Assembly (NCBI GenBank): GCA_964506225.1
Contig: CAZDKH010000010.1
Coordinates: 23,019-87,018 of the forward strand
DNA from: an uncultured Gammaproteobacteria bacterium
Lineage (GTDB): Bacteria > Patescibacteriota > Microgenomatia > UBA8517
Length of the DNA stretch: 64,000 nt
Reading direction: 5' to 3'
The notes beneath the pieces were generated by a model that was not told where the DNA came from, did no database searches, and saw nothing but the letters and a program-made list of their open reading frames with translations. The translations under genes were made by a program, and so were the position numbers. Shown piece by piece: positions 8,467-36,283 of this stretch (within the stretch, counting starts at the first letter, position 1; each line of letters begins with the position of its first letter).

Positions 8467-9732
8467 TTGATGTTATTAAAATTATTTGCTTATTTTAAGA
8501 CTGCAACAATCAGGCAAACAACAATAACCTTTTCCTCAACCTTTATTAATGGACTTTTGGGACTTGCTTTCTACATCTTGGTTGCTAGATTTTTGGGTCC
8601 CGAAGCTTTTGGTCTTTTTAATGTAACAATAGTTCTTATCACTATGGTTTCCGATATTGCTGATTTAGGAACAAATACAGGTATTGTTAGTTTTGTAGGC
8701 AGATATTTCATAAAAAGTAAAGCTCTTGCCTATAAATACTTAAAACTTGGATTGATAGTAAAAATAACCTTGGGGGTTTTAGTAATCATTCTAGGAGAAA
8801 TACTTTCTGGATTTATAGCCTTAGACTTGTTTCAGAAAAAAGAAATCCTAATTCTTCTCAGGGTGGGATTTGTTGGGGCGTTGGGATATTTGATTTTTGG
8901 ATTTGCAACCAGTTGCCTCCAAGCTACCCAAAAATTTTTTCGCTGGGCACTTCTTTATATTGGAACAAACCTTATTAGATTATTATTAATTATAACATTT
9001 TTTTTACTTGGGATTTTAACGAAAGAATTAACTACCTTTGTTTATTTTTTAGTCTTGTTTCTGGGATTTTTGTTTTTTTTGCTAATTTTTCCCACAAACT
9101 TTCTTTACTACAAGACTGAACCAAAAATTGTAAAAAATTTTTTGCATTTTAACAAATGGGTGGCGGCATTTATTGTTGTTTCTGCTCTGTCTTCCAGGAT
9201 TGACTCTTTTATCTCAGTCCGCTTATTGGCTCCCTTGGATCTTGGGTTTTATTCTGCCGCAAATCAGCTTGTACAAGTTGTACCCCAGTTTGTTTCAGCT
9301 TTGGGAATTGTTATTGCGCCCAAAATGGCCTCAATGGGCAAAAGAGAGTCTTTTATCTCTTATTTTAAAAAGACCCAGCTTCTGGTTACTGCCTTTTGTA
9401 TAATCGGGGCATTGGCAACTCCGGTTATGGCTTTTCTCATACCCTTGGTTTTGGGAGATGTTTATCTTGGTTCACAGATTATCTTTGTTATTCTTATGAT
9501 TGCAATGCTCATATTTTTATTTTCAGTTCCTATTCATAGCGCGGTTATCTATTACTTTTCTTACCCAAGATTGTTTTTTTGGTTATCCCTGATTCATCTT
9601 TTTACTGTTTTGACTCTTGGGGTTATTCTTATTAGGTTTTTTGGTGCAGTGGGCGCTTCCTTGGCTGTTTTGGTTGGGTCAATGCTGAATTTTGTTGTAC
9701 CATGTGGCTGGCTTGTCAGAAAATTAAGATGA
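8467..9732 (+). CDS. Wzx-type oligosaccharide/polysaccharide flippase (MOP superfamily)
   Basis: 421 aa and fully polytopic. The N-terminal region 'FINGLLGLAFYILVARFLGPEAFGLFNV' is typical of polysaccharide biosynthesis/flippase proteins. The start may be TTG 8467 or ATG 8470. Confidence 0.75.
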   Translation: MMLLKLFAYFKTATIRQTTITFSSTFINGLLGLAFYILVARFLGPEAFGLFNVTIVLITMVSDIADLGTNTGIVSFVGRYFIKSKALAYKYLKLGLIVKITLGVLVIILGEILSGFIALDLFQKKEILILLRVGFVGALGYLIFGFATSCLQATQKFFRWALLYIGTNLIRLLLIITFFLLGILTKELTTFVYFLVLFLGFLFFLLIFPTNFLYYKTEPKIVKNFLHFNKWVAAFIVVSALSSRIDSFISVRLLAPLDLGFYSAANQLVQVVPQFVSALGIVIAPKMASMGKRESFISYFKKTQLLVTAFCIIGALATPVMAFLIPLVLGDVYLGSQIIFVILMIAMLIFLFSVPIHSAVIYYFSYPRLFFWLSLIHLFTVLTLGVILIRFFGAVGASLAVLVGSMLNFVVPCGWLVRKLR

Positions 9733-13922: not shown

Positions 13923-15369
13923 AAAAAATTCATTACTTTTTATTGTCTTTCTATCTTTATTGTTAAGATTGGTTTGGATAGATCAGGGCCTATGGCTGGA
14001 TGAGGCTATAGGCGCTCTGGAAGTCAAAAGACACGGGTTTTGGGGAATACTGACTATTTTTATTAGAAATGACAACCACCCGCCATTGTACTATCTTTTA
14101 CTGGAAGCTTGGACAAGAATTTTTGGTTTTAGTGATTTTGCCATAAGGAGTTTATCGGTTATCTTGGGAGTATTAAATGTTTTAGTTCTTGTTAAAGTTG
14201 CCCAGCTTGTTTTTCCGAATAAAAAAGGGCTGCAGAAGGCGGTGGGATTATTTTTAGCAACTTCGCCTTTCCATATCTACTACTCCCAAGAAGCGAGGAT
14301 GTACATAGTGGCTGCTTTTTTAACATGTCTTTCTATTTATTCTTTCCTCAAACTTGTTAAGGGGCAGAGTCTTTTTGACTGGATACTTTTTTCTTTTTCA
14401 ATTACGGCAACAGTTTTTACTGACTATTTGCCTTTTTTTATTCTTCCTGCCCTTTGGTTATTTGCGCTTTTGAGGATTAGAGACAGTGGGTGGTGGAGAA
14501 GTTTTTTGCTTTCTCATCTACCAATTTTTGTTTTAGGTTTACTTTGGCTACCAACTTTTTTTATCCAGCTTTCTTCTGGTGGCTGGCTTGTTTCCATTCT
14601 CCCGGCTTGGGCAGAGCTTGCCGGAGGAGCAACATTAAAAAATCTGCTTTTGGTTTGGATGAAGTTTATCTTAGGCAGAATTTCTCTTTTGCCTAAGTAT
14701 TTTTACTATGCCCTTATTGTTTTAGCTTCGCTTCCTTTTGTTTTTGTTTTTTTGCAATCTCTTAAAAAATTTAAAAAATTTCTGATAATTTTTCTTTGGT
14801 TTTTTATCCCTCTTTTTTTGGGTTTTGTTTTTTCTTTTATTTTCCCAGCCTTTTATTATTTTCGTTTTCTTTTTATTTATCCAGCATTTGTGCTTTTGTT
14901 GTTTGTTGGTCTTCTAGGGTTGACAAGAAATAAGAAAAAAATTCTTTTTTCTATTCTTATTTTTTGCAATTTAGTGGGTTTTTACTTTTATGTAGCCGAT
15001 GAGAATCAAAGAAGGGAACAGTGGCGCGAAGCTACACGGTTTTTGGAAAAAAGCGCTGATGAAGACGCTGTGGTAGTTTTTATCTATCCAGAACCTTTTG
15101 CAGCCTATCGCTGGTATCAAAGAGGCATTATCAAAGCCTATGGGGTAACCGATTCTATTTCTGCCAATAAAGATGAAACCTTAAAAATAACCAAAAAAGC
15201 AATTTCAGACAAAAGCAAAGTCTATCAATTTAGTTATCTTGAAGATTTGACTGACCCCCAAGGCCTTGTCAGGCAGACTTTGAGAGAGAGCGGTTTTAGA
15301 ATTACAAAGACATTTTCTGAATTTAAGGGTGTAGGATTAATAAATTTATGGGAAAAAGAAGAATTTTAA
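13906..15369 (+). CDS. GT-C glycosyltransferase, PMT_2/ArnT-like (GT39/GT83-type)
   Basis: Polytopic protein. 'LWLDEAIG' is the acidic first-loop motif, and 'NDNHPPLYYLLLEAW' is typical of this family. Confidence 0.75.
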   Translation: MKRLLEKNSLLFIVFLSLLLRLVWIDQGLWLDEAIGALEVKRHGFWGILTIFIRNDNHPPLYYLLLEAWTRIFGFSDFAIRSLSVILGVLNVLVLVKVAQLVFPNKKGLQKAVGLFLATSPFHIYYSQEARMYIVAAFLTCLSIYSFLKLVKGQSLFDWILFSFSITATVFTDYLPFFILPALWLFALLRIRDSGWWRSFLLSHLPIFVLGLLWLPTFFIQLSSGGWLVSILPAWAELAGGATLKNLLLVWMKFILGRISLLPKYFYYALIVLASLPFVFVFLQSLKKFKKFLIIFLWFFIPLFLGFVFSFIFPAFYYFRFLFIYPAFVLLLFVGLLGLTRNKKKILFSILIFCNLVGFYFYVADENQRREQWREATRFLEKSADEDAVVVFIYPEPFAAYRWYQRGIIKAYGVTDSISANKDETLKITKKAISDKSKVYQFSYLEDLTDPQGLVRQTLRESGFRITKTFSEFKGVGLINLWEKEEF

Positions 15370-30839: not shown

Positions 30840-32156
30840 ATGAGTTTAATGGATGAAATTGTCTCCTTGGCAAAGCGCAGGGGATTTATCTTTCAGGGGA
30901 GCGAGATTTATGGGGGGTTGGCTGGATTTTGGGATTATGGCCCCCTTGGGGTTGAGCTTAAAAAGAATATCAAAAATGAGTGGTGGAAATCTATGGTCTA
31001 TGAAAGAGAGGATGTGGTTGGAATAGATGCCGCGATTATCATGAATCCCAGAGTTTGGGAGGTTTCAGGGCATACAGAGTCTTTTTCCGACCCCCTGATA
31101 GAGTGTAAGCTTTGCCATAAACGCTTCAGACCCGATAAACCAGAAAGTGTCAAAGAGCACGAAGATCAACACTTAAAAAACAAGGAAAAGGTTTCTTGGA
31201 CTAAGCCCAAGAAATTTAATCTTTTAACAGAGGTTTTTCTGGGAACAACCGAGCCCAAACAAAAAGCTTATCTGCGGGGTGAGATTACCCAAGGAGTATT
31301 TGTGAATTTTAAAAATATTCTTGATTCAACACATATGCGTATTCCTTTTGGGGTTGCCCAGATAGGAAAGGCTTTCCGCAACGAAATCACCCCGGGAAAT
31401 TTTACCTTTAGAAGCAGAGAATTCGAGCAGATGGAGCTTGAATATTTTGTCAGGCCTGAAGAGAAGGAAGGCAAGAAAACTTTTGAATACTGGAAGAATG
31501 AGCGTATAAACTGGTATGTTAATCTGGGTATACGCCGAGAAAAGTTAAGACTCAGAGAACATACTCCAGAGGAAAGGGCTCATTACGCAAGAAGCGCTGA
31601 AGATATTCAGTATGAATCTCCTTTTGGTTGGGATGAGTTTGAAGGAATTCACCACAGAGGAGACTGGGATTTGGGACGTCATCAACTAAAATACAAGGAT
31701 CCTGACTCCGGTAAAGAATATACACCCTGGGTGATTGAGACATCCGGGGGGGTGGATAGAGCGGCTTTATTTTTCCTAATTGACGCCTATTGTAAGGATA
31801 ACGGCCGGGTTGTATTAAAACTAAATCCCCGTCTTGCTCCCTATAAACTGGCTGTTTTCCCACTTTTGGCAAACAAACCCAGTCTGGTTAACAAAGCAAG
31901 AAGCATATTTGAAAAATTGCGGGGGAAGTACCCTATCTCGTGGGATGACAGGGGAAATATTGGAAAAAGGTATTTTGCTCAGGATGAGATTGGTACCCCA
32001 TGGTGTTTGACTGTTGATTTTCAGACACTTAAGGATAATACTGTTACTTTAAGGGATAGAGACACGACCAAACAAGAAAGAGTTGACATCTCTAAATTGG
32101 AAGGCTGGCTTGAGAGTAAATACAAATGCCAGAAAAAGAAAGCAGACAAAGTTTAG
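30840..32156 (+). CDS. glyQS: Glycine--tRNA ligase (dimeric class II, GlyQS type)
   Basis: 'RRGFIFQGSEIYGGLAGFWDYGPLGVELKKNIKNEWW', 'FRNEITPGNFTFRSREFEQMELEYF' (motif 2) and 'GGVDRAALF' (motif 3 region). Confidence 0.95.
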   Translation: MSLMDEIVSLAKRRGFIFQGSEIYGGLAGFWDYGPLGVELKKNIKNEWWKSMVYEREDVVGIDAAIIMNPRVWEVSGHTESFSDPLIECKLCHKRFRPDKPESVKEHEDQHLKNKEKVSWTKPKKFNLLTEVFLGTTEPKQKAYLRGEITQGVFVNFKNILDSTHMRIPFGVAQIGKAFRNEITPGNFTFRSREFEQMELEYFVRPEEKEGKKTFEYWKNERINWYVNLGIRREKLRLREHTPEERAHYARSAEDIQYESPFGWDEFEGIHHRGDWDLGRHQLKYKDPDSGKEYTPWVIETSGGVDRAALFFLIDAYCKDNGRVVLKLNPRLAPYKLAVFPLLANKPSLVNKARSIFEKLRGKYPISWDDRGNIGKRYFAQDEIGTPWCLTVDFQTLKDNTVTLRDRDTTKQERVDISKLEGWLESKYKCQKKKADKV

Positions 32157-33194: not shown

Positions 33195-33457
33195 TGGACC
33201 GAAAGAGTCTGGTGCGAAATTTGGTCAAGGAAAAGCCCTACCTTTCTTGGTATACAAAGGCAGATGACTTAAGTTACGAAAGTGTTTTGGAGAGTGTGCT
33301 AAACTACGGTAGCTGGGAAGATTATATTCATCTAGAGAAAATTTTAGGAATAGAAGAAGTAAGGGCGCTTTTTGAAAAGATAACTAGTAAAAAGAGAGTC
33401 AATCTAAGGCCGCAGACAGTGGAGTATTACAGAAAGTATTTCCAAAAATATACATGA
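33194..33457 (+). CDS. Small hypothetical protein, probable partner of the downstream AbiEii-like gene
   Basis: 87-aa ORF. Its ATG overlaps the upstream TAA (TAATG), and its stop sits beside the start region of the nucleotidyltransferase remnant. It resembles small proteins I recall finding upstream of AbiEii-type genes, but this is unverified. Confidence 0.45.
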   Translation: MDRKSLVRNLVKEKPYLSWYTKADDLSYESVLESVLNYGSWEDYIHLEKILGIEEVRALFEKITSKKRVNLRPQTVEYYRKYFQKYT

Positions 33458-34059
33458 GGAGATACTTACAAGGCAACAGAAAACACTTCTTCCTTTATTA
33501 AAGGAGTTCTCAAATGACTTTGGTTTGGTTGGTGGCACGGCCCTTGCTCTCCAGATTGGTCACAGAAGGTCTGTTGATTTTGGCCTTTTTACTCTTAGAA
33601 GTTTTGATATCGAGAGGATTAGAAATACTGTTAGACAAAAATTTGCTATTCAGGAAACGTTGGTTGAAAATCCCAATGAGCTTACGCTTGCTATTAACAA
33701 CGTCAAGCTTACATTTTACAAATATCCTTATACTATGGGTTTTCAAAAAGCTTAAACAAGGTTATTAAAATGCCTGATATTTTGACGCTTGCTGCGATGA
33801 AAGCTTTTGCTCTAGGAAGAAGGGTAAGTGGAAGGACTATGTAGATCTTTACTACGTTTTTAAAATCTATAGCCTAAAGGACATAGTGACGAAAGCAATA
33901 GGAATTTTCAAAGAAGAGTTTAATGAGAAGCTTTTGAGGGAACAACTTTCCTGTTTTACCGATATTGATTATTCAGAAAAGATTGACTATCTAAAGGGCT
34001 TTGAGGTAAGGGATGAAGAAATAAAAAGAAAATTGACCGAAATTAGCCTTTCAAGATAG
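33456..34059 (+). pseudogene. Decayed nucleotidyltransferase AbiEii/AbiGii toxin-family gene
   Basis: Three reading-frame pieces join into one family-like protein. Piece 1 is '..LTRQQKTLLPLLKEFSNDFGLVGGTALALQIGHRRSVDFGLFT...YKYPYTMGFQKA' followed by a stop. After a frame change, piece 2 is 'MPDILTLAAMKAFALGRR'. After another frame change, piece 3 is 'KWKDYVDLYYVFKIYSLKDIV...ISLSR' followed by a stop. There is no in-frame ATG at the 5' end. Confidence 0.65.
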
Positions 34060-34060
34060 C

Positions 34061-34111
34061 AGGTCTTCAGATGTGGGAGTGTTTGTTGGTATTTATAAGG
34101 GAAGTGAGTAA
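34061..34111 (+). pseudogene. Orphan duplicated 3' end of the 32442..33194 gene
   Basis: Reads RSSDVGVFVGIYKGSE followed by a stop, against ..NASDVGVFVGTSDITE and a stop at 33144-33194. The length to the stop is the same, and the SDVGVFVG core is 18/24 nt identical. Confidence 0.55.
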
Positions 34112-34132
34112 AGAAAAAATTAACCTTAAGTT

Positions 34133-35614
34133 TTATTGGAATTTTTTGCCTAGGTTAGATAATAGCGAGGCCGCAATGTCAACATCAGTGACCAGAGTTG
34201 TTCCGCTTTCGATTGCGGCTTGACGGATAAGTTTCCCATCGCTTATTTCTTTATCATCGCGTTTAGGATTTGTGGGAATATTTATAATAAGATCAAACAT
34301 ATTTTTTTGTAGAAGATCCCTTAGGTTTGGTTGTCCATTTTCGCTTATTTTATAAACTCTGGTTGAGGGTATTCCGTGCTTTTGTAAAAAGAGATTTGTG
34401 TTTTGGGTCGCGTAAAGAATATGGCTGTTACTTCTTAATTTTTTAAGGCTGGGTAAAAGTTTGGCCTTGTTTTCGTCTTTACCTATTGAAAGTAATATTG
34501 TTTTCTTGTGGTCAAGGATTGGTTGCATGCCGCGTTTGGCTACATCCCAATCTTTGGTTTGTCTATTCATTAAACAAAAAAGAGAGCATTGTCTAATATC
34601 ATCCATACCCAAGATAAACTGCATAACCCTTTCATTACCTATCCCATATCCTGCGTGAGGTAAGGTTTTTTGAGCCACTATAATATCTTCGGTATACCAC
34701 TGAAAATCTTCATATTTTCCACCACGTTGCTCGTGCATTTTATACATCTTAGATGTCAAAAACCTCACAATTAGTTTTACCCCATCGTGCTCGCGGACAG
34801 CAGAGCCGACTCCCTCTCCACTGAAAGGAAATATACAATCAGCCGAAAGAACCACCCTGGGGTCTTTCGTTGAGACTTTCATATTGAAGAATTTGATTTC
34901 TTTTGGATATTTCATAATAAAAACTGGAGAGAATTCTGCAGTGTTTTTTCCGTAACCTCTTGTTTTTTTGTTGAGAAGCTCAACTATCTTGGCTTCATGC
35001 TCGGATATTAAATCATCTCCAAATTGTAGTTCAGGCCAACCATTCTTTTGTAAAAGCAAGACAGCTTCTTCGTAGGAAATCCGCAAATATGGCCTTGCCA
35101 TAATCTCCTTAAGAAGAGCAGGATCTCTTTTGTAATCTGATTTGAGAATTTTACTATTGTTTTCTAGAACTGAATTTATCATCGCTTTTGTGGCTAGTTC
35201 AATATGGGCAAGAAGTGTTTCGAACATCTTTTCTTCGTCGTATGTATCTTTAGTCATCTTTGCCATTGTACAGTCAAACTCTTCCTCTGTTAATCTAAAT
35301 TGTCGAAGATGTCTTTTGTCCTCTGTCTCCTCATCGCGACCACTAAAAATTATCGTGTAGACACCGTGAGCGTATTGCAAAACTTGTTCGAGGGCAAGCT
35401 GACCTGTTTGAGTGAAGAAAAGAGGTAAATTAAGTCGGTTGCCTATTTTGAAAAGAGTGTCCACATTTTCGCAAGCTCCAGTTATACCAACAATTGCTGG
35501 TACTTCTGCGTATTGTAAACCAAGTGAACGATAATGGGCAATAGAGCCATAAAACATCGCAGAGCTGAAATTCACCAAGTTCTGAAAATGTTTATTATTA
35601 TCTTTGAGTGACAT
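34133..35614 (-). CDS. Class II aaRS-like catalytic core (AsnRS/AspRS/AsnA-type, no anticodon-binding domain) fused to a C-terminal MGS-like domain
   Basis: The motif-1-like sequence is 'YAEVPAIVGITGACENVDTLF'. The motif-2-like sequence is 'FSGRDEETEDKRHLRQFRLTEEEF', which aligns residue for residue with AsnRS '[21 protein letters not shown]'. The motif-3-like sequence is 'GYGIGNERVMQFILGMDDIRQCSLF'. The last ~120 aa ('KKTILLSIGKDENK..YATQNTNLFLQKHGIP..FDLIINIP..IRQAAIESGTTLVTDVDIA') resemble the MGS-like fold of the CPSase allosteric domain. Confidence 0.7.
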   Translation of the reverse strand: MSLKDNNKHFQNLVNFSSAMFYGSIAHYRSLGLQYAEVPAIVGITGACENVDTLFKIGNRLNLPLFFTQTGQLALEQVLQYAHGVYTIIFSGRDEETEDKRHLRQFRLTEEEFDCTMAKMTKDTYDEEKMFETLLAHIELATKAMINSVLENNSKILKSDYKRDPALLKEIMARPYLRISYEEAVLLLQKNGWPELQFGDDLISEHEAKIVELLNKKTRGYGKNTAEFSPVFIMKYPKEIKFFNMKVSTKDPRVVLSADCIFPFSGEGVGSAVREHDGVKLIVRFLTSKMYKMHEQRGGKYEDFQWYTEDIIVAQKTLPHAGYGIGNERVMQFILGMDDIRQCSLFCLMNRQTKDWDVAKRGMQPILDHKKTILLSIGKDENKAKLLPSLKKLRSNSHILYATQNTNLFLQKHGIPSTRVYKISENGQPNLRDLLQKNMFDLIINIPTNPKRDDKEISDGKLIRQAAIESGTTLVTDVDIAASLLSNLGKKFQ

Positions 35615-35616
35615 AT

Positions 35617-35640
35617 AAAAAAAAGACCCTTGCGGGTCTT
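35617..35640 (-). terminator. Rho-independent terminator-like hairpin 2 nt upstream of the start codon of the 34133..35614 gene
   Basis: The minus strand reads AAGACCC-GCAA-GGGTCTT followed by a T-tract of 8 T's in total. That is a 7-bp stem with a GNRA tetraloop. The sequence then continues AT-ATG (start at 35614). Confidence 0.75.
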
Positions 35641-35713
35641 CTTTGATAAATAATTTTTGATTTATAGTTTTTCCAGAGTTCCCCTAATGCCATAAAATAA
35701 TCTCTAAAATTTT

Positions 35714-35742
35714 AATCTAGAGATTTTCTAAAAAAGTGTCAA
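35714..35742 (-). promoter_or_regulatory. Candidate promoter TTGACA-17-TAGATT (minus strand) for the leader/aaRS-like gene
   Basis: On the minus strand, TTGACA is at 35742-35737 and TAGATT at 35719-35714, with a 17-nt spacer. An 8-bp inverted repeat, AATCTCTA/TAGAGATT, overlaps the -10 box and the predicted TSS. Confidence 0.45.
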
Positions 35743-35775: not shown

Positions 35776-35804
35776 TTGACAATTCGTGAAAACGGTATCA
35801 GAAT
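35776..35804 (+). promoter_or_regulatory. Candidate dcw (mraZ) promoter TTGACA-17-CAGAAT
   Basis: TTGACA at 35776-35781, a 17-nt spacer, then CAGAAT at 35799-35804. It is divergent from the minus-strand promoter. Confidence 0.45.
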
Positions 35805-35834
35805 GGTGATAAGTGGTGCAAAGTGGTGAAAAGT
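35801..35834 (+). promoter_or_regulatory. 10-bp-phased GTGGTG direct repeats, candidate MraZ operator
   Basis: The sequence reads gaatGGTGat / aaGTGGTGca / aaGTGGTGaa / aaGTaattta, in units of exactly 10 bp. The array lies between the -10 box and the mraZ ATG (35840). Confidence 0.6.
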
Positions 35835-35839
35835 AATTT

Positions 35840-36283
35840 ATGTTTATTGGACAGTATGAAGCGGTTCTGGGAGAGAAAAATAGAATCGCTATACCCAAAA
35901 AGTTTAGAAACGAGCTTGGTGAAAAATTTATCATAGCAAAGTGGTATGAGGGTTGTTTGGTCCTAGTTTCGGGGAAATATTGGAGTGCACTTTTAGAAAA
36001 GCTAAGGGGTAGATCAAAAATTATAACCTTGCCGGTTAGAGACACAGACAGGTTTATCCTGGGTTCAGCCTATGAAGTTGAGCCAGATTCTCAGGGAAGG
36101 GTGGTTCTTCCCGAGAAGTTGGTAAAATACGCGTCTCTTAAAAATGAGGTGAGCTTTTTGGGGCTTGGAGACAGAATTGAGATCTGGGATAAAGTTCTTT
36201 GGGAAAAGCGAGAAAAATTTATCTCAGAAAATGCCGAAAAGTTGGTCGAGAAATTAGCACAGATAAGTGATGGCCAAAAGTAA
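35840..36283 (+). CDS. mraZ: Transcriptional regulator MraZ
   Basis: 'MFIGQYEAVLGEKNRIAIPKKFR' and a second SpoVT/AbrB-like half, 'DSQGRVVLPEKL'. It is the first gene of the dcw cluster. Confidence 0.95.
   Translation: MFIGQYEAVLGEKNRIAIPKKFRNELGEKFIIAKWYEGCLVLVSGKYWSALLEKLRGRSKIITLPVRDTDRFILGSAYEVEPDSQGRVVLPEKLVKYASLKNEVSFLGLGDRIEIWDKVLWEKREKFISENAEKLVEKLAQISDGQK

Follow-up and report, generated by a model that had tools for sequence, protein, structure and literature searches.

A conserved uORF-terminator leader upstream of an AsnRS-like gene in Patescibacteria: a candidate ribosome-dependent transcription attenuator

Introduction

In Escherichia coli, a ribosome that keeps close behind RNA polymerase blocks formation of an intrinsic terminator hairpin, and the attenuators of pyrBI, pyrE and ampC work in this way. 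At rph-pyrE and ampC, a ribosome positioned at a stop codon near the hairpin prevents termination; the former reports the coupling of translation to transcription and the latter the availability of ribosomes. To our knowledge, almost nothing is known about gene regulation in the Patescibacteria, or candidate phyla radiation (CPR), which are not grown alone, encode few regulators and are often described as unable to make nucleotides. Here we analysed a stretch of 64,000 nucleotides (nt) of DNA, called the window (contig CAZDKH010000010.1, positions 23,019-87,018 of the forward strand, assembly GCA_964506225.1; GC content 37%), in which a leader with a promoter, a short upstream open reading frame (uORF) and an intrinsic terminator precedes a minus-strand gene for a protein related to asparaginyl-tRNA synthetase (AsnRS).

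A preliminary description of this DNA had listed a promoter-like element, a terminator hairpin with a T8 tract and a 31-codon uORF in front of a gene resembling those of aminoacyl-tRNA synthetases, and all were recovered where it had placed them. It offered three readings: an element responsive to a ligand or tRNA, opening of the terminator hairpin dependent on the uORF, and an independent small RNA (sRNA) of ~90 nt. We favour the second. Judged by comparison with related loci, the region is a conserved cis-regulatory leader in front of the AsnRS-like gene; two features that had been missed, a conserved hairpin around the uORF start (P1) and a link of the gene to pyrimidine operons in relatives, bear on how it may work. 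The leader is not in Rfam, and its type, though known in general, was not found for CPR bacteria in the literature that we searched.

Results

A strong intrinsic terminator lies between the putative promoter and the start codon of the AsnRS-like gene (Table 1). Its core, AAGACCC-GCAA-GGGTCTT, can be extended to 11 base pairs (bp; 35644-35619), has a folding energy of -14.1 kcal/mol, and is followed by T8 (35624-35617), AT and the ATG at 35614-35612, which is supported as the start codon since homologues align from residues 1-9 of the 493-residue product. The hairpin ranked first among the terminator-like sites in a scan of the window; eight sites in the whole 64 kb passed a stricter scan, of which this was the strongest and the sole intergenic one, the other seven being weaker and inside genes. 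The claim that no minus-strand gene lies upstream for it to terminate was borne out, the region upstream being that of the divergent gene mraZ.

The promoter match, taken alone, was not significant (33 sites in the consensus scan against 27 ± 5.7 expected), but a TTGACA/-10 pair was present at the equivalent place in most related leaders. Transcription is predicted to start at about 35708-35705 on the minus strand, giving a leader of ~90-95 nt with two simple hairpins. The folding energy of this leader was below that of its shuffles (z = -2.35) because of the terminator hairpin alone.

Table 1. Coordinates of the leader, its neighbours and comparable elements in related loci. Positions without a locus name refer to the window; aa, amino acids.
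Feature	Position	Strand	Description
Sigma-70-type promoter (putative)	35714..35742	-	-35 TTGACA 35742-35737, 17-nt spacer, -10 TAGATT 35719-35714; consensus scan 10/12
P1, 5'-proximal hairpin	35671..35709	-	UUUUAGAG (35709-35702) pairs with CUCUGGAA (35678-35671); 23-nt loop holds the uORF AUG (35693)
uORF (leader peptide)	35598..35693	-	31 codons and stop, MALGELWKNYKSKIIYQRRPARVFFLYVTQR; starts in the P1 loop, crosses the terminator
Intrinsic terminator (candidate attenuator)	35617..35644	-	Stem AAAGAAGACCC / GGGUCUUUUUU, GCAA loop, U8 tract ending at 35617
Gene with the leader, 493 aa	34133..35614	-	AsnRS-like class II catalytic core and C-terminal CarB-type allosteric (MGS-like) domain; Pfam PF00152, PF02142
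mraZ, divergent upstream gene	35840-36283	+	Pfam MraZ, E = 6e-26
AsnRS-like/MGS pyr clusters	L016 2926-7057; L022 302-6864; L033 1111-2730; L084-L086
Second leader of the same type	L016 7050-7225		Promoter, P1 TCTCAGAG...CTCTGA and U8
Promoter/short ORF/terminator leader before ArgG-MGS	L032 ~190-290
Promoter/short ORF/terminator leader before ArgG-MGS	L033 2731-2860	-
Promoter/short ORF/terminator leader before the gene of a 275-aa protein	L026 1790-1906		Gene adjoins the AsnRS-like gene

We fetched 80 related loci, referred to below by L numbers, for comparison. Of the 75 loci that could be tested, 50 had a hairpin followed by a T-run in the 250 nt preceding the homologue. When the search was limited to 160 nt, a terminator-like hairpin was seen upstream of this gene in 35/54 CPR (Microgenomates) loci, and upstream of only 8/249 other ORF starts in the same loci; conservation before orthologues was the test that the preliminary description had set beforehand for its hairpin. 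Loci with a divergent upstream neighbour are informative because no upstream gene there needs a terminator, and in this subset the leader hairpin was found for 18/25 copies of the gene against 4/69 controls. The upstream neighbours vary among loci and are not syntenic. Terminators are kept in position and not in sequence, many having the form AAGAGCC-GNRA-GGCTCTT and others being unrelated GC-rich stems. Comparison with about 70 related loci thus upholds the earlier view that the terminator is part of the 5' leader of the gene that follows it and suggests that its role there is regulatory.

Most leaders share a common layout. TTGACA, 16-18 nt and TAnnnT are followed after 4-5 nt by P1, with a 5' arm of the form YCYCAGRG, a loop of 4-23 nt that usually contains an ATG and, often, a U6-U8 tract; an A-rich spacer then leads to a GC-rich hairpin with U7-U9, and the main start codon comes 0-40 nt further on. 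Seven extra loci (L081-L087), obtained by exact protein look-ups, were kept outside every model and statistic. The full layout was found in L081, which has the mraZ synteny of the window, in L082 and its near-duplicate L083, and in L085 and L086; in L084 the promoter directly precedes the main ATG and the layout is absent, and in L087 the terminator lies 8 nt after the stop codon of an upstream ORF.

We then asked where the uORFs end. A uORF was counted if it began with ATG after the -10 box, had at least 8 codons, and ended in the interval from 9 nt before the stem base to 25 nt past the U tract. The sample comprised the 34 leaders with a good promoter and terminator. Such a uORF, with its stop at, in or past the terminator, was present in 28/34 leaders, compared to 8.7 ± 2.4 when the promoter-to-terminator interval was dinucleotide-shuffled (maximum 17 in 1000 shuffles). 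It is this result that favours uORF-dependent opening of the terminator hairpin. The stops cluster at -1 or -7 from the first base of the stem and in the hairpin loop, where GUAA and GUGA loops supply the stop codon; others lie past the U tract or overlap the main ATG (ATGA in L082), and that of the window, TAA at 35600-35598, comes 14 nt beyond the first base of the main ATG. Across these leaders, uORFs begin ~5-17 nt from the predicted 5' end and are 10-33 codons long.

Apart from the constraints set by the P1 arm and the U tracts, the peptides themselves show no conservation. Among 661 uORF codons we found no runs of regulatory codons and no enrichment of any amino acid in frame over out of frame; asparagine accounted for 6.1% of the in-frame and 5.9% of the out-of-frame codons. 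A few leaders depart from the pattern. The uORFs of L048 and L059 are in frame with the main ORF without a stop, and translation through the terminator would give an N-terminally extended enzyme; relative to L059, a 1-nt indel in L044 restores a stop at the base of the hairpin. The short ORFs of L033 and L006 would need a TTG start.

P1 is present in both the centroid and the minimum free energy folds of the window leader. In an alignment of 23 leaders it starts 4-5 nt downstream of the -10 box, and 85% of the cells were paired; shuffled columns gave 73% and slid partners 30-56%. The value of 85% is inflated by the hand-picking of leaders that show the hairpin. Both sides have changed in eight of its nine pairs, and the occurrence of G-U pairs indicates pairing at the RNA level. 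The 5' arm is conserved beyond pairing, with an invariant or near-invariant A-G within YCYCAGRG. A U6-U8 tract follows P1 in 12/23 aligned leaders, and several leaders have an extra hairpin with a U tract; outside the P1 stem, neither length nor sequence is kept in loops and spacers. Removal of the 3-4 pyrimidines at +6 to +9 after the -10 box weakened P1 from -5 to -13 kcal/mol to between 0 and -6 kcal/mol. The stabilising pyrimidines lie where initiation is expected, and the near-invariant A-G comes next. A covariance model of P1 (R1) carries little information (0.66 bit per position) and is a poor detector genome-wide; it nevertheless found two instances on which it had not been trained, one upstream of the homologue in L044 and one at L016 7084-7121. 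Its match at 14665-14705 of the window is intragenic and was taken as chance.

A competing antiterminator helix was sought in the same 34 leaders. The best pairing between the upstream leader and the 5' arm of the terminator was as expected from dinucleotide shuffles (mean z = -0.02, n = 34; 1/34 with z < -2), and the best upstream duplexes had energies of -2 to -6 kcal/mol, compared to -10 to -15 kcal/mol for the terminators. The only candidate antiterminator is the ribosome itself.

The product of the gene matches Pfam PF00152 and is closest to AsnRS, in agreement with its earlier description as resembling an aminoacyl-tRNA synthetase. NCBIfam and PDB matches are to AsnRS cores and to the C-terminus of CarB; the protein falls far under equivalog cut-offs and lacks an anticodon-binding domain. 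Many homologues occur among CPR bacteria, including Amesbacteria, Gottesmanbacteria, Roizmanbacteria and Woesebacteria among others. Genes similar to pyrD, pyrE or pyrF were found by tblastn in the few kb of flanking DNA in 27/67 CPR loci, immediately 3' of the AsnRS-like gene in the operons that were inspected. In L016, PyrD-, PyrF- and PyrE-like genes come after it, and Pfam-annotated gene calls in L084, L085 and L086 agree with such a neighbourhood. ArgG fused to the same MGS domain, together with an amidohydrolase, is often encoded upstream of the gene in relatives. Clusters of this composition may provide CPR bacteria with an unconventional route to early pyrimidine intermediates, and no paper on this clustering was found in the literature searched.

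Leaders of the same type were associated with the AsnRS-like family across non-syntenic contexts, and also with other first genes of pyr clusters (Table 1). In the second leader of L016, the uORF extends across two hairpin-U tracts, with its stop codon on the main ATG; the gene downstream of it, which is partial and follows pyrE, has no Pfam family, and neither does the 275-residue protein of L026.

Other elements near the promoter were also considered. An 8-bp inverted repeat, AATCTCTA/TAGAGATT, does span 35699-35725 over the -10 box, as had been reported, and was rejected as an operator: the window holds 35 such repeats, 8% of shuffles of the 225-nt spacer contain one, and it is not conserved, being missing from the closest syntenic relative, L081. 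The earlier argument that a Shine-Dalgarno (SD)-like element is buried in the terminator stem carries little weight because this genome rarely uses SD sequences, with a strong match in 1/51 window ORFs whose starts came from a naive caller, and SD sequestration was dropped as the key to the main ORF. Many window ORFs have a TAnAAT box ending 6-9 nt 5' of the start (for example at 8467, 11387, 30840, 59668 on the minus strand and 61221), and this, along with the rarity of SD elements, suggests widespread leaderless or near-leaderless mRNAs.

On the mraZ side, three direct repeats, ATGGTGAT AAGTGGTGCA AAGTGGTGAA, with 10-nt spacing occupy 35803-35830 on the plus strand. They sit between the mraZ promoter (TTGACA at 35776, CAGAAT to 35804) and the mraZ ATG at 35840, and look like MraZ operator boxes; a comparable CCACCA/TCACCA/ATACCA series adjoins mraZ in L081. 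At 30840-32156 on the plus strand, 2 kb from the AsnRS-like gene, the window encodes a class II aminoacyl-tRNA synthetase with an HGTP anticodon-binding domain, probably HisRS-like.

Discussion

The position of the uORF stops, in the zone that a ribosome would occlude or beyond a hairpin that the uORF crosses, leads us to propose that translation of the uORF causes read-through and lack of translation causes termination. We put the probability that the leader belongs to the class of ribosome-occlusion, uORF-dependent transcription attenuators, with no alternative RNA fold, at roughly 0.6. A precedent for the physical principle is available: when a stop codon was moved from 28 bp to 5 bp upstream of the terminator tR2, termination fell from ~90% to <10% in a translation-dependent manner (PMC4824070).

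In the proposed sequence of events, the promoter would give a transcript that opens with P1, which encloses the uORF AUG and would set how often the uORF is translated. A ribosome on the uORF would trail RNA polymerase and be translating through the GC-rich hairpin by the time the U8 tract is transcribed; in the case of many relatives, it would instead sit on a stop codon at the base or in the loop of the hairpin. With the 5' arm covered by the ribosome, the hairpin could not form and the polymerase would continue into the enzyme gene. If the uORF were untranslated, or the ribosome lagged, the hairpin would form and transcription would end 2 nt before the ATG, leaving an RNA of ~90 nt. In the window, a ribosome crossing the hairpin would also unfold the RNA at the main AUG and could hand over by translational coupling, since the uORF ends 14 nt inside the main ORF.

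Several points weigh against this proposal. The start site, termination at 35617, translation of the uORF and the physiological signal are all inferred from sequence, and the P1 alignment was selected by hand. The window copy is atypical, with a weak P1 (about -6.9 kcal/mol; 17.4 bits with model R1), no U tract after P1 and none anywhere before the terminator. A hairpin and U tract at about +5, as seen in relatives, would act before a ribosome could load, a role that simple coupling does not explain. About one third of the orthologues lack a leader terminator, some of them being internal operon genes, and in L084 and L011 a promoter immediately precedes the ORF. In these two loci (L084 2950-3003; L011 ~1290-1342) the promoter and a YCCMAG motif are kept, the main ORF begins at the position expected of the uORF and the terminator is absent, and from them it seems that the attenuator is easily gained or lost. 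Finally, the 64-kb window contains no pyr gene and the AsnRS-like gene is monocistronic there, so that its pyrimidine link is by homology alone; furthermore, low UTP normally raises intrinsic termination when no ribosome is present. A search for pseudogenised pyr genes downstream in the window gave no trace, and the ~900 nt past the stop codon of the gene (33195-34132) showed no long ORF, Rfam match, tRNA, terminator-like site or remnant of pyr genes.

As to what the attenuator might sense, we tentatively suggest the supply of pyrimidine nucleotides, detected by RNA polymerase through UTP-sensitive pausing at U tracts (compare E. coli pyrBI and pyrE), through choice of start site (compare pyrC), or both. 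We prefer this signal because the gene belongs to pyrimidine operons in relatives; as an identification it is possible, and the odds are rather against it. A fuller version, in which a non-canonical pyrimidine pathway of CPR bacteria is governed by this leader as a two-stage, protein-free sensor of nucleotides, is doubtful. At high CTP and UTP, RNA polymerase would initiate on the pyrimidines located 6-9 nt downstream of the -10 box and the full P1 would form; with the U tract that follows it in most relatives, P1 would act as a first terminator. P1 would also hide the uORF start, and the second terminator would catch the remaining transcripts. When pyrimidine nucleotides are low, initiation would shift to the invariant A-G, P1 would be largely destabilised and the uORF translated, and a polymerase slowed at the U tracts would be caught by the ribosome, overriding both terminators. 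If true, a start-site switch of the pyrC kind and coupling of the pyrBI kind would be fused in one leader of ~95 nt, and the AsnRS-like/MGS and ArgG/MGS enzymes would be members of a pyrimidine regulon.

An alternative that we regard as unlikely is that a protein, either similar to PyrR or the enzyme itself by autoregulation, binds and stabilises P1, hides the uORF start and so permits termination; the ribosome and uORF would remain the effectors, with the protein taking the place of RNA polymerase as sensor. The conservation of the P1 5' arm beyond pairing and the linkage to pyr operons would fit such a protein. YCYCAGRG presumably resembles the PyrR box UCCAGAGAGG of the pyr leaders of Gram-positive bacteria, and PyrR acts by translational repression in mycobacteria. 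However, the Rfam PyrR family (RF00515) gave no match at E ≤ 10 in searches of 131 and 701 nt or at E ≤ 1 in nine loci, and tblastn found no PyrR homologue in the window and ~0.5 Mb of related loci, a weak test with a B. subtilis query that covered a fraction of each genome. The phosphoribosyltransferases encoded near the gene type as OPRT or APRT (orotate or adenine phosphoribosyltransferase) and not as PyrR, and the length of the P1 loop varies from 4 to 23 nt.

It is also quite improbable that the leader is an independent unit, an sRNA of ~90 nt and/or a gene for a small protein with its own promoter and terminator, that just happens to precede an enzyme gene with expression signals of its own. 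The promoter, short ORF and strong terminator do add up to a complete unit, and a working terminator would necessarily yield the terminated product; trans-acting sRNAs and leader peptides derived from attenuators, such as rnTrpL and peTrpL, are documented. The sRNA of the preliminary description may be a by-product, but as the whole explanation it leaves the conserved position of the uORF stop unaccounted for, and the peptide sequence is not conserved. Moreover, the unit is tied to one gene family in non-syntenic contexts and to the first genes of pyr operons, and the space from the U tract to the ATG is too short for a second promoter in the window (2 nt), L002, L003, L009, L036 and L082.

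A constitutive element, in which a stabilising 5' hairpin and a leaky terminator set low expression or insulate the gene from the divergent mraZ promoter region, is very unlikely. Hairpins at the 5' terminus can stabilise mRNAs, no sensor was identified, and intrinsic terminators are otherwise rare in the window. Such an element explains neither the uORFs that end at the hairpin in most leaders nor why the layout tracks the AsnRS-like family and other first genes of pyr clusters, as in L016, L032 and L033.

The absence of an antiterminator, of an Rfam family and of regulatory codons disfavours riboswitches, T-boxes and attenuators of the trp type. A metabolite- or tRNA-binding riboswitch-like attenuator, the first of the earlier readings, would suit a terminator-bearing leader of favourable fold energy in front of the gene for an enzyme of the amino-acid or nucleotide type, yet that energy comes from the terminator, loops and spacers are free to vary apart from the P1 stem, and ~90 nt with two simple hairpins are too small for a T-box; we consider it highly improbable. 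The Rfam/Infernal scan that had been proposed was run with Rfam 15 at E ≤ 10 on the window leader and matched no family. Together with scans of nine related loci (E ≤ 1) and of the L013 leader (E ≤ 10), it returned only Atu_C8, Yfr10, STnc370, Phe_leader and PyrC_leader, all sub-threshold noise driven by terminators; the PyrC leader (RF02372) was rejected, its 16 bits (E = 2.4) falling well short of the gathering score, which is 50. At gathering thresholds, the whole window gave tRNA-Val alone. A classic leader-peptide attenuator of the trp, his or phe type, sensing asparagine or aspartate by hungry codons, is barely tenable: a uORF and terminator upstream of an AsnRS/AsnA-like gene and a weak Phe_leader match (16.7 bits, far under the gathering score of 55 bits) invite it, but there are no codon runs, in-frame enrichment or antiterminator (2:3) structure, and Phe-Phe pairs are unavoidable in uORFs that read through U tracts.

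The leader is conserved and easily recognised, and under the ribosome-occlusion mechanism it would be a first concrete and testable cis-regulatory mechanism for CPR bacteria, one that needs no dedicated regulator protein. It may also serve as a functional tag, in that the AsnRS-like/CarB-type enzyme, the ArgG-MGS fusion and two genes of unknown function would be co-regulated with pyrD, pyrE and pyrF, which suggests that the early part of the pyrimidine pathway is unconventional in CPR bacteria. The rule of a stop codon at the hairpin can be searched genome-wide for further attenuators.

Several described systems invite comparison. The leader shares with the antibiotic-responsive systems bmrCD/BmrB, vmlR and msrD a short uORF and an intrinsic terminator in the 5' leader, and in all of them the position of the ribosome decides read-through, as is proposed here; those systems use stalling and an alternative antiterminator fold and carry resistance genes, unlike the present leader, which has no alternative fold and a metabolic cargo. 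The PyrR-binding leader (RF00515) places pyr operons under attenuation at an intrinsic terminator, and the motif similar to CCAGAG in P1 presumably resembles its PyrR box. In contrast to the PyrR system, which involves no uORF, the present leader has one, and neither a match to RF00515 nor an antiterminator/anti-antiterminator pair nor a pyrR gene was seen in the available loci. As in the pyrC and pyrD leaders of E. coli and Salmonella, a hairpin would form from the very first transcribed nucleotides, with its stability tied to pyrimidines at +6 to +9 after the -10 box; there, the hairpin hides the SD of the structural gene, whereas here it would hide the start of the uORF. Clustering of the uORF stops at -1 and -7 from the stem base fits the logic of rph-pyrE and ampC, with the difference that the uORF here is short and dedicated, while pyrE uses a real gene, rph, and ampC a minimal AUG-stop.

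In layout, the leader also invites comparison with that of E. coli pyrBI, a UTP-sensitive attenuator coupled to translation. The two share no sequence homology and belong to different phyla (here CPR/Microgenomates); the leader ORF has 10-33 codons as against 44 in pyrBI, there is an extra 5' hairpin around the leader AUG, often with its own U tract, and the protein that would be controlled is AsnRS-like/MGS and not aspartate transcarbamoylase. The U-rich tracts upstream of the pyrBI attenuator, and its control of pyrimidine synthesis, may have counterparts in some relatives, though neither is seen in the window. In both systems, nevertheless, antiterminator helix and regulatory codons are absent, and the leader ORF runs up to or through an intrinsic terminator immediately ahead of the structural gene.

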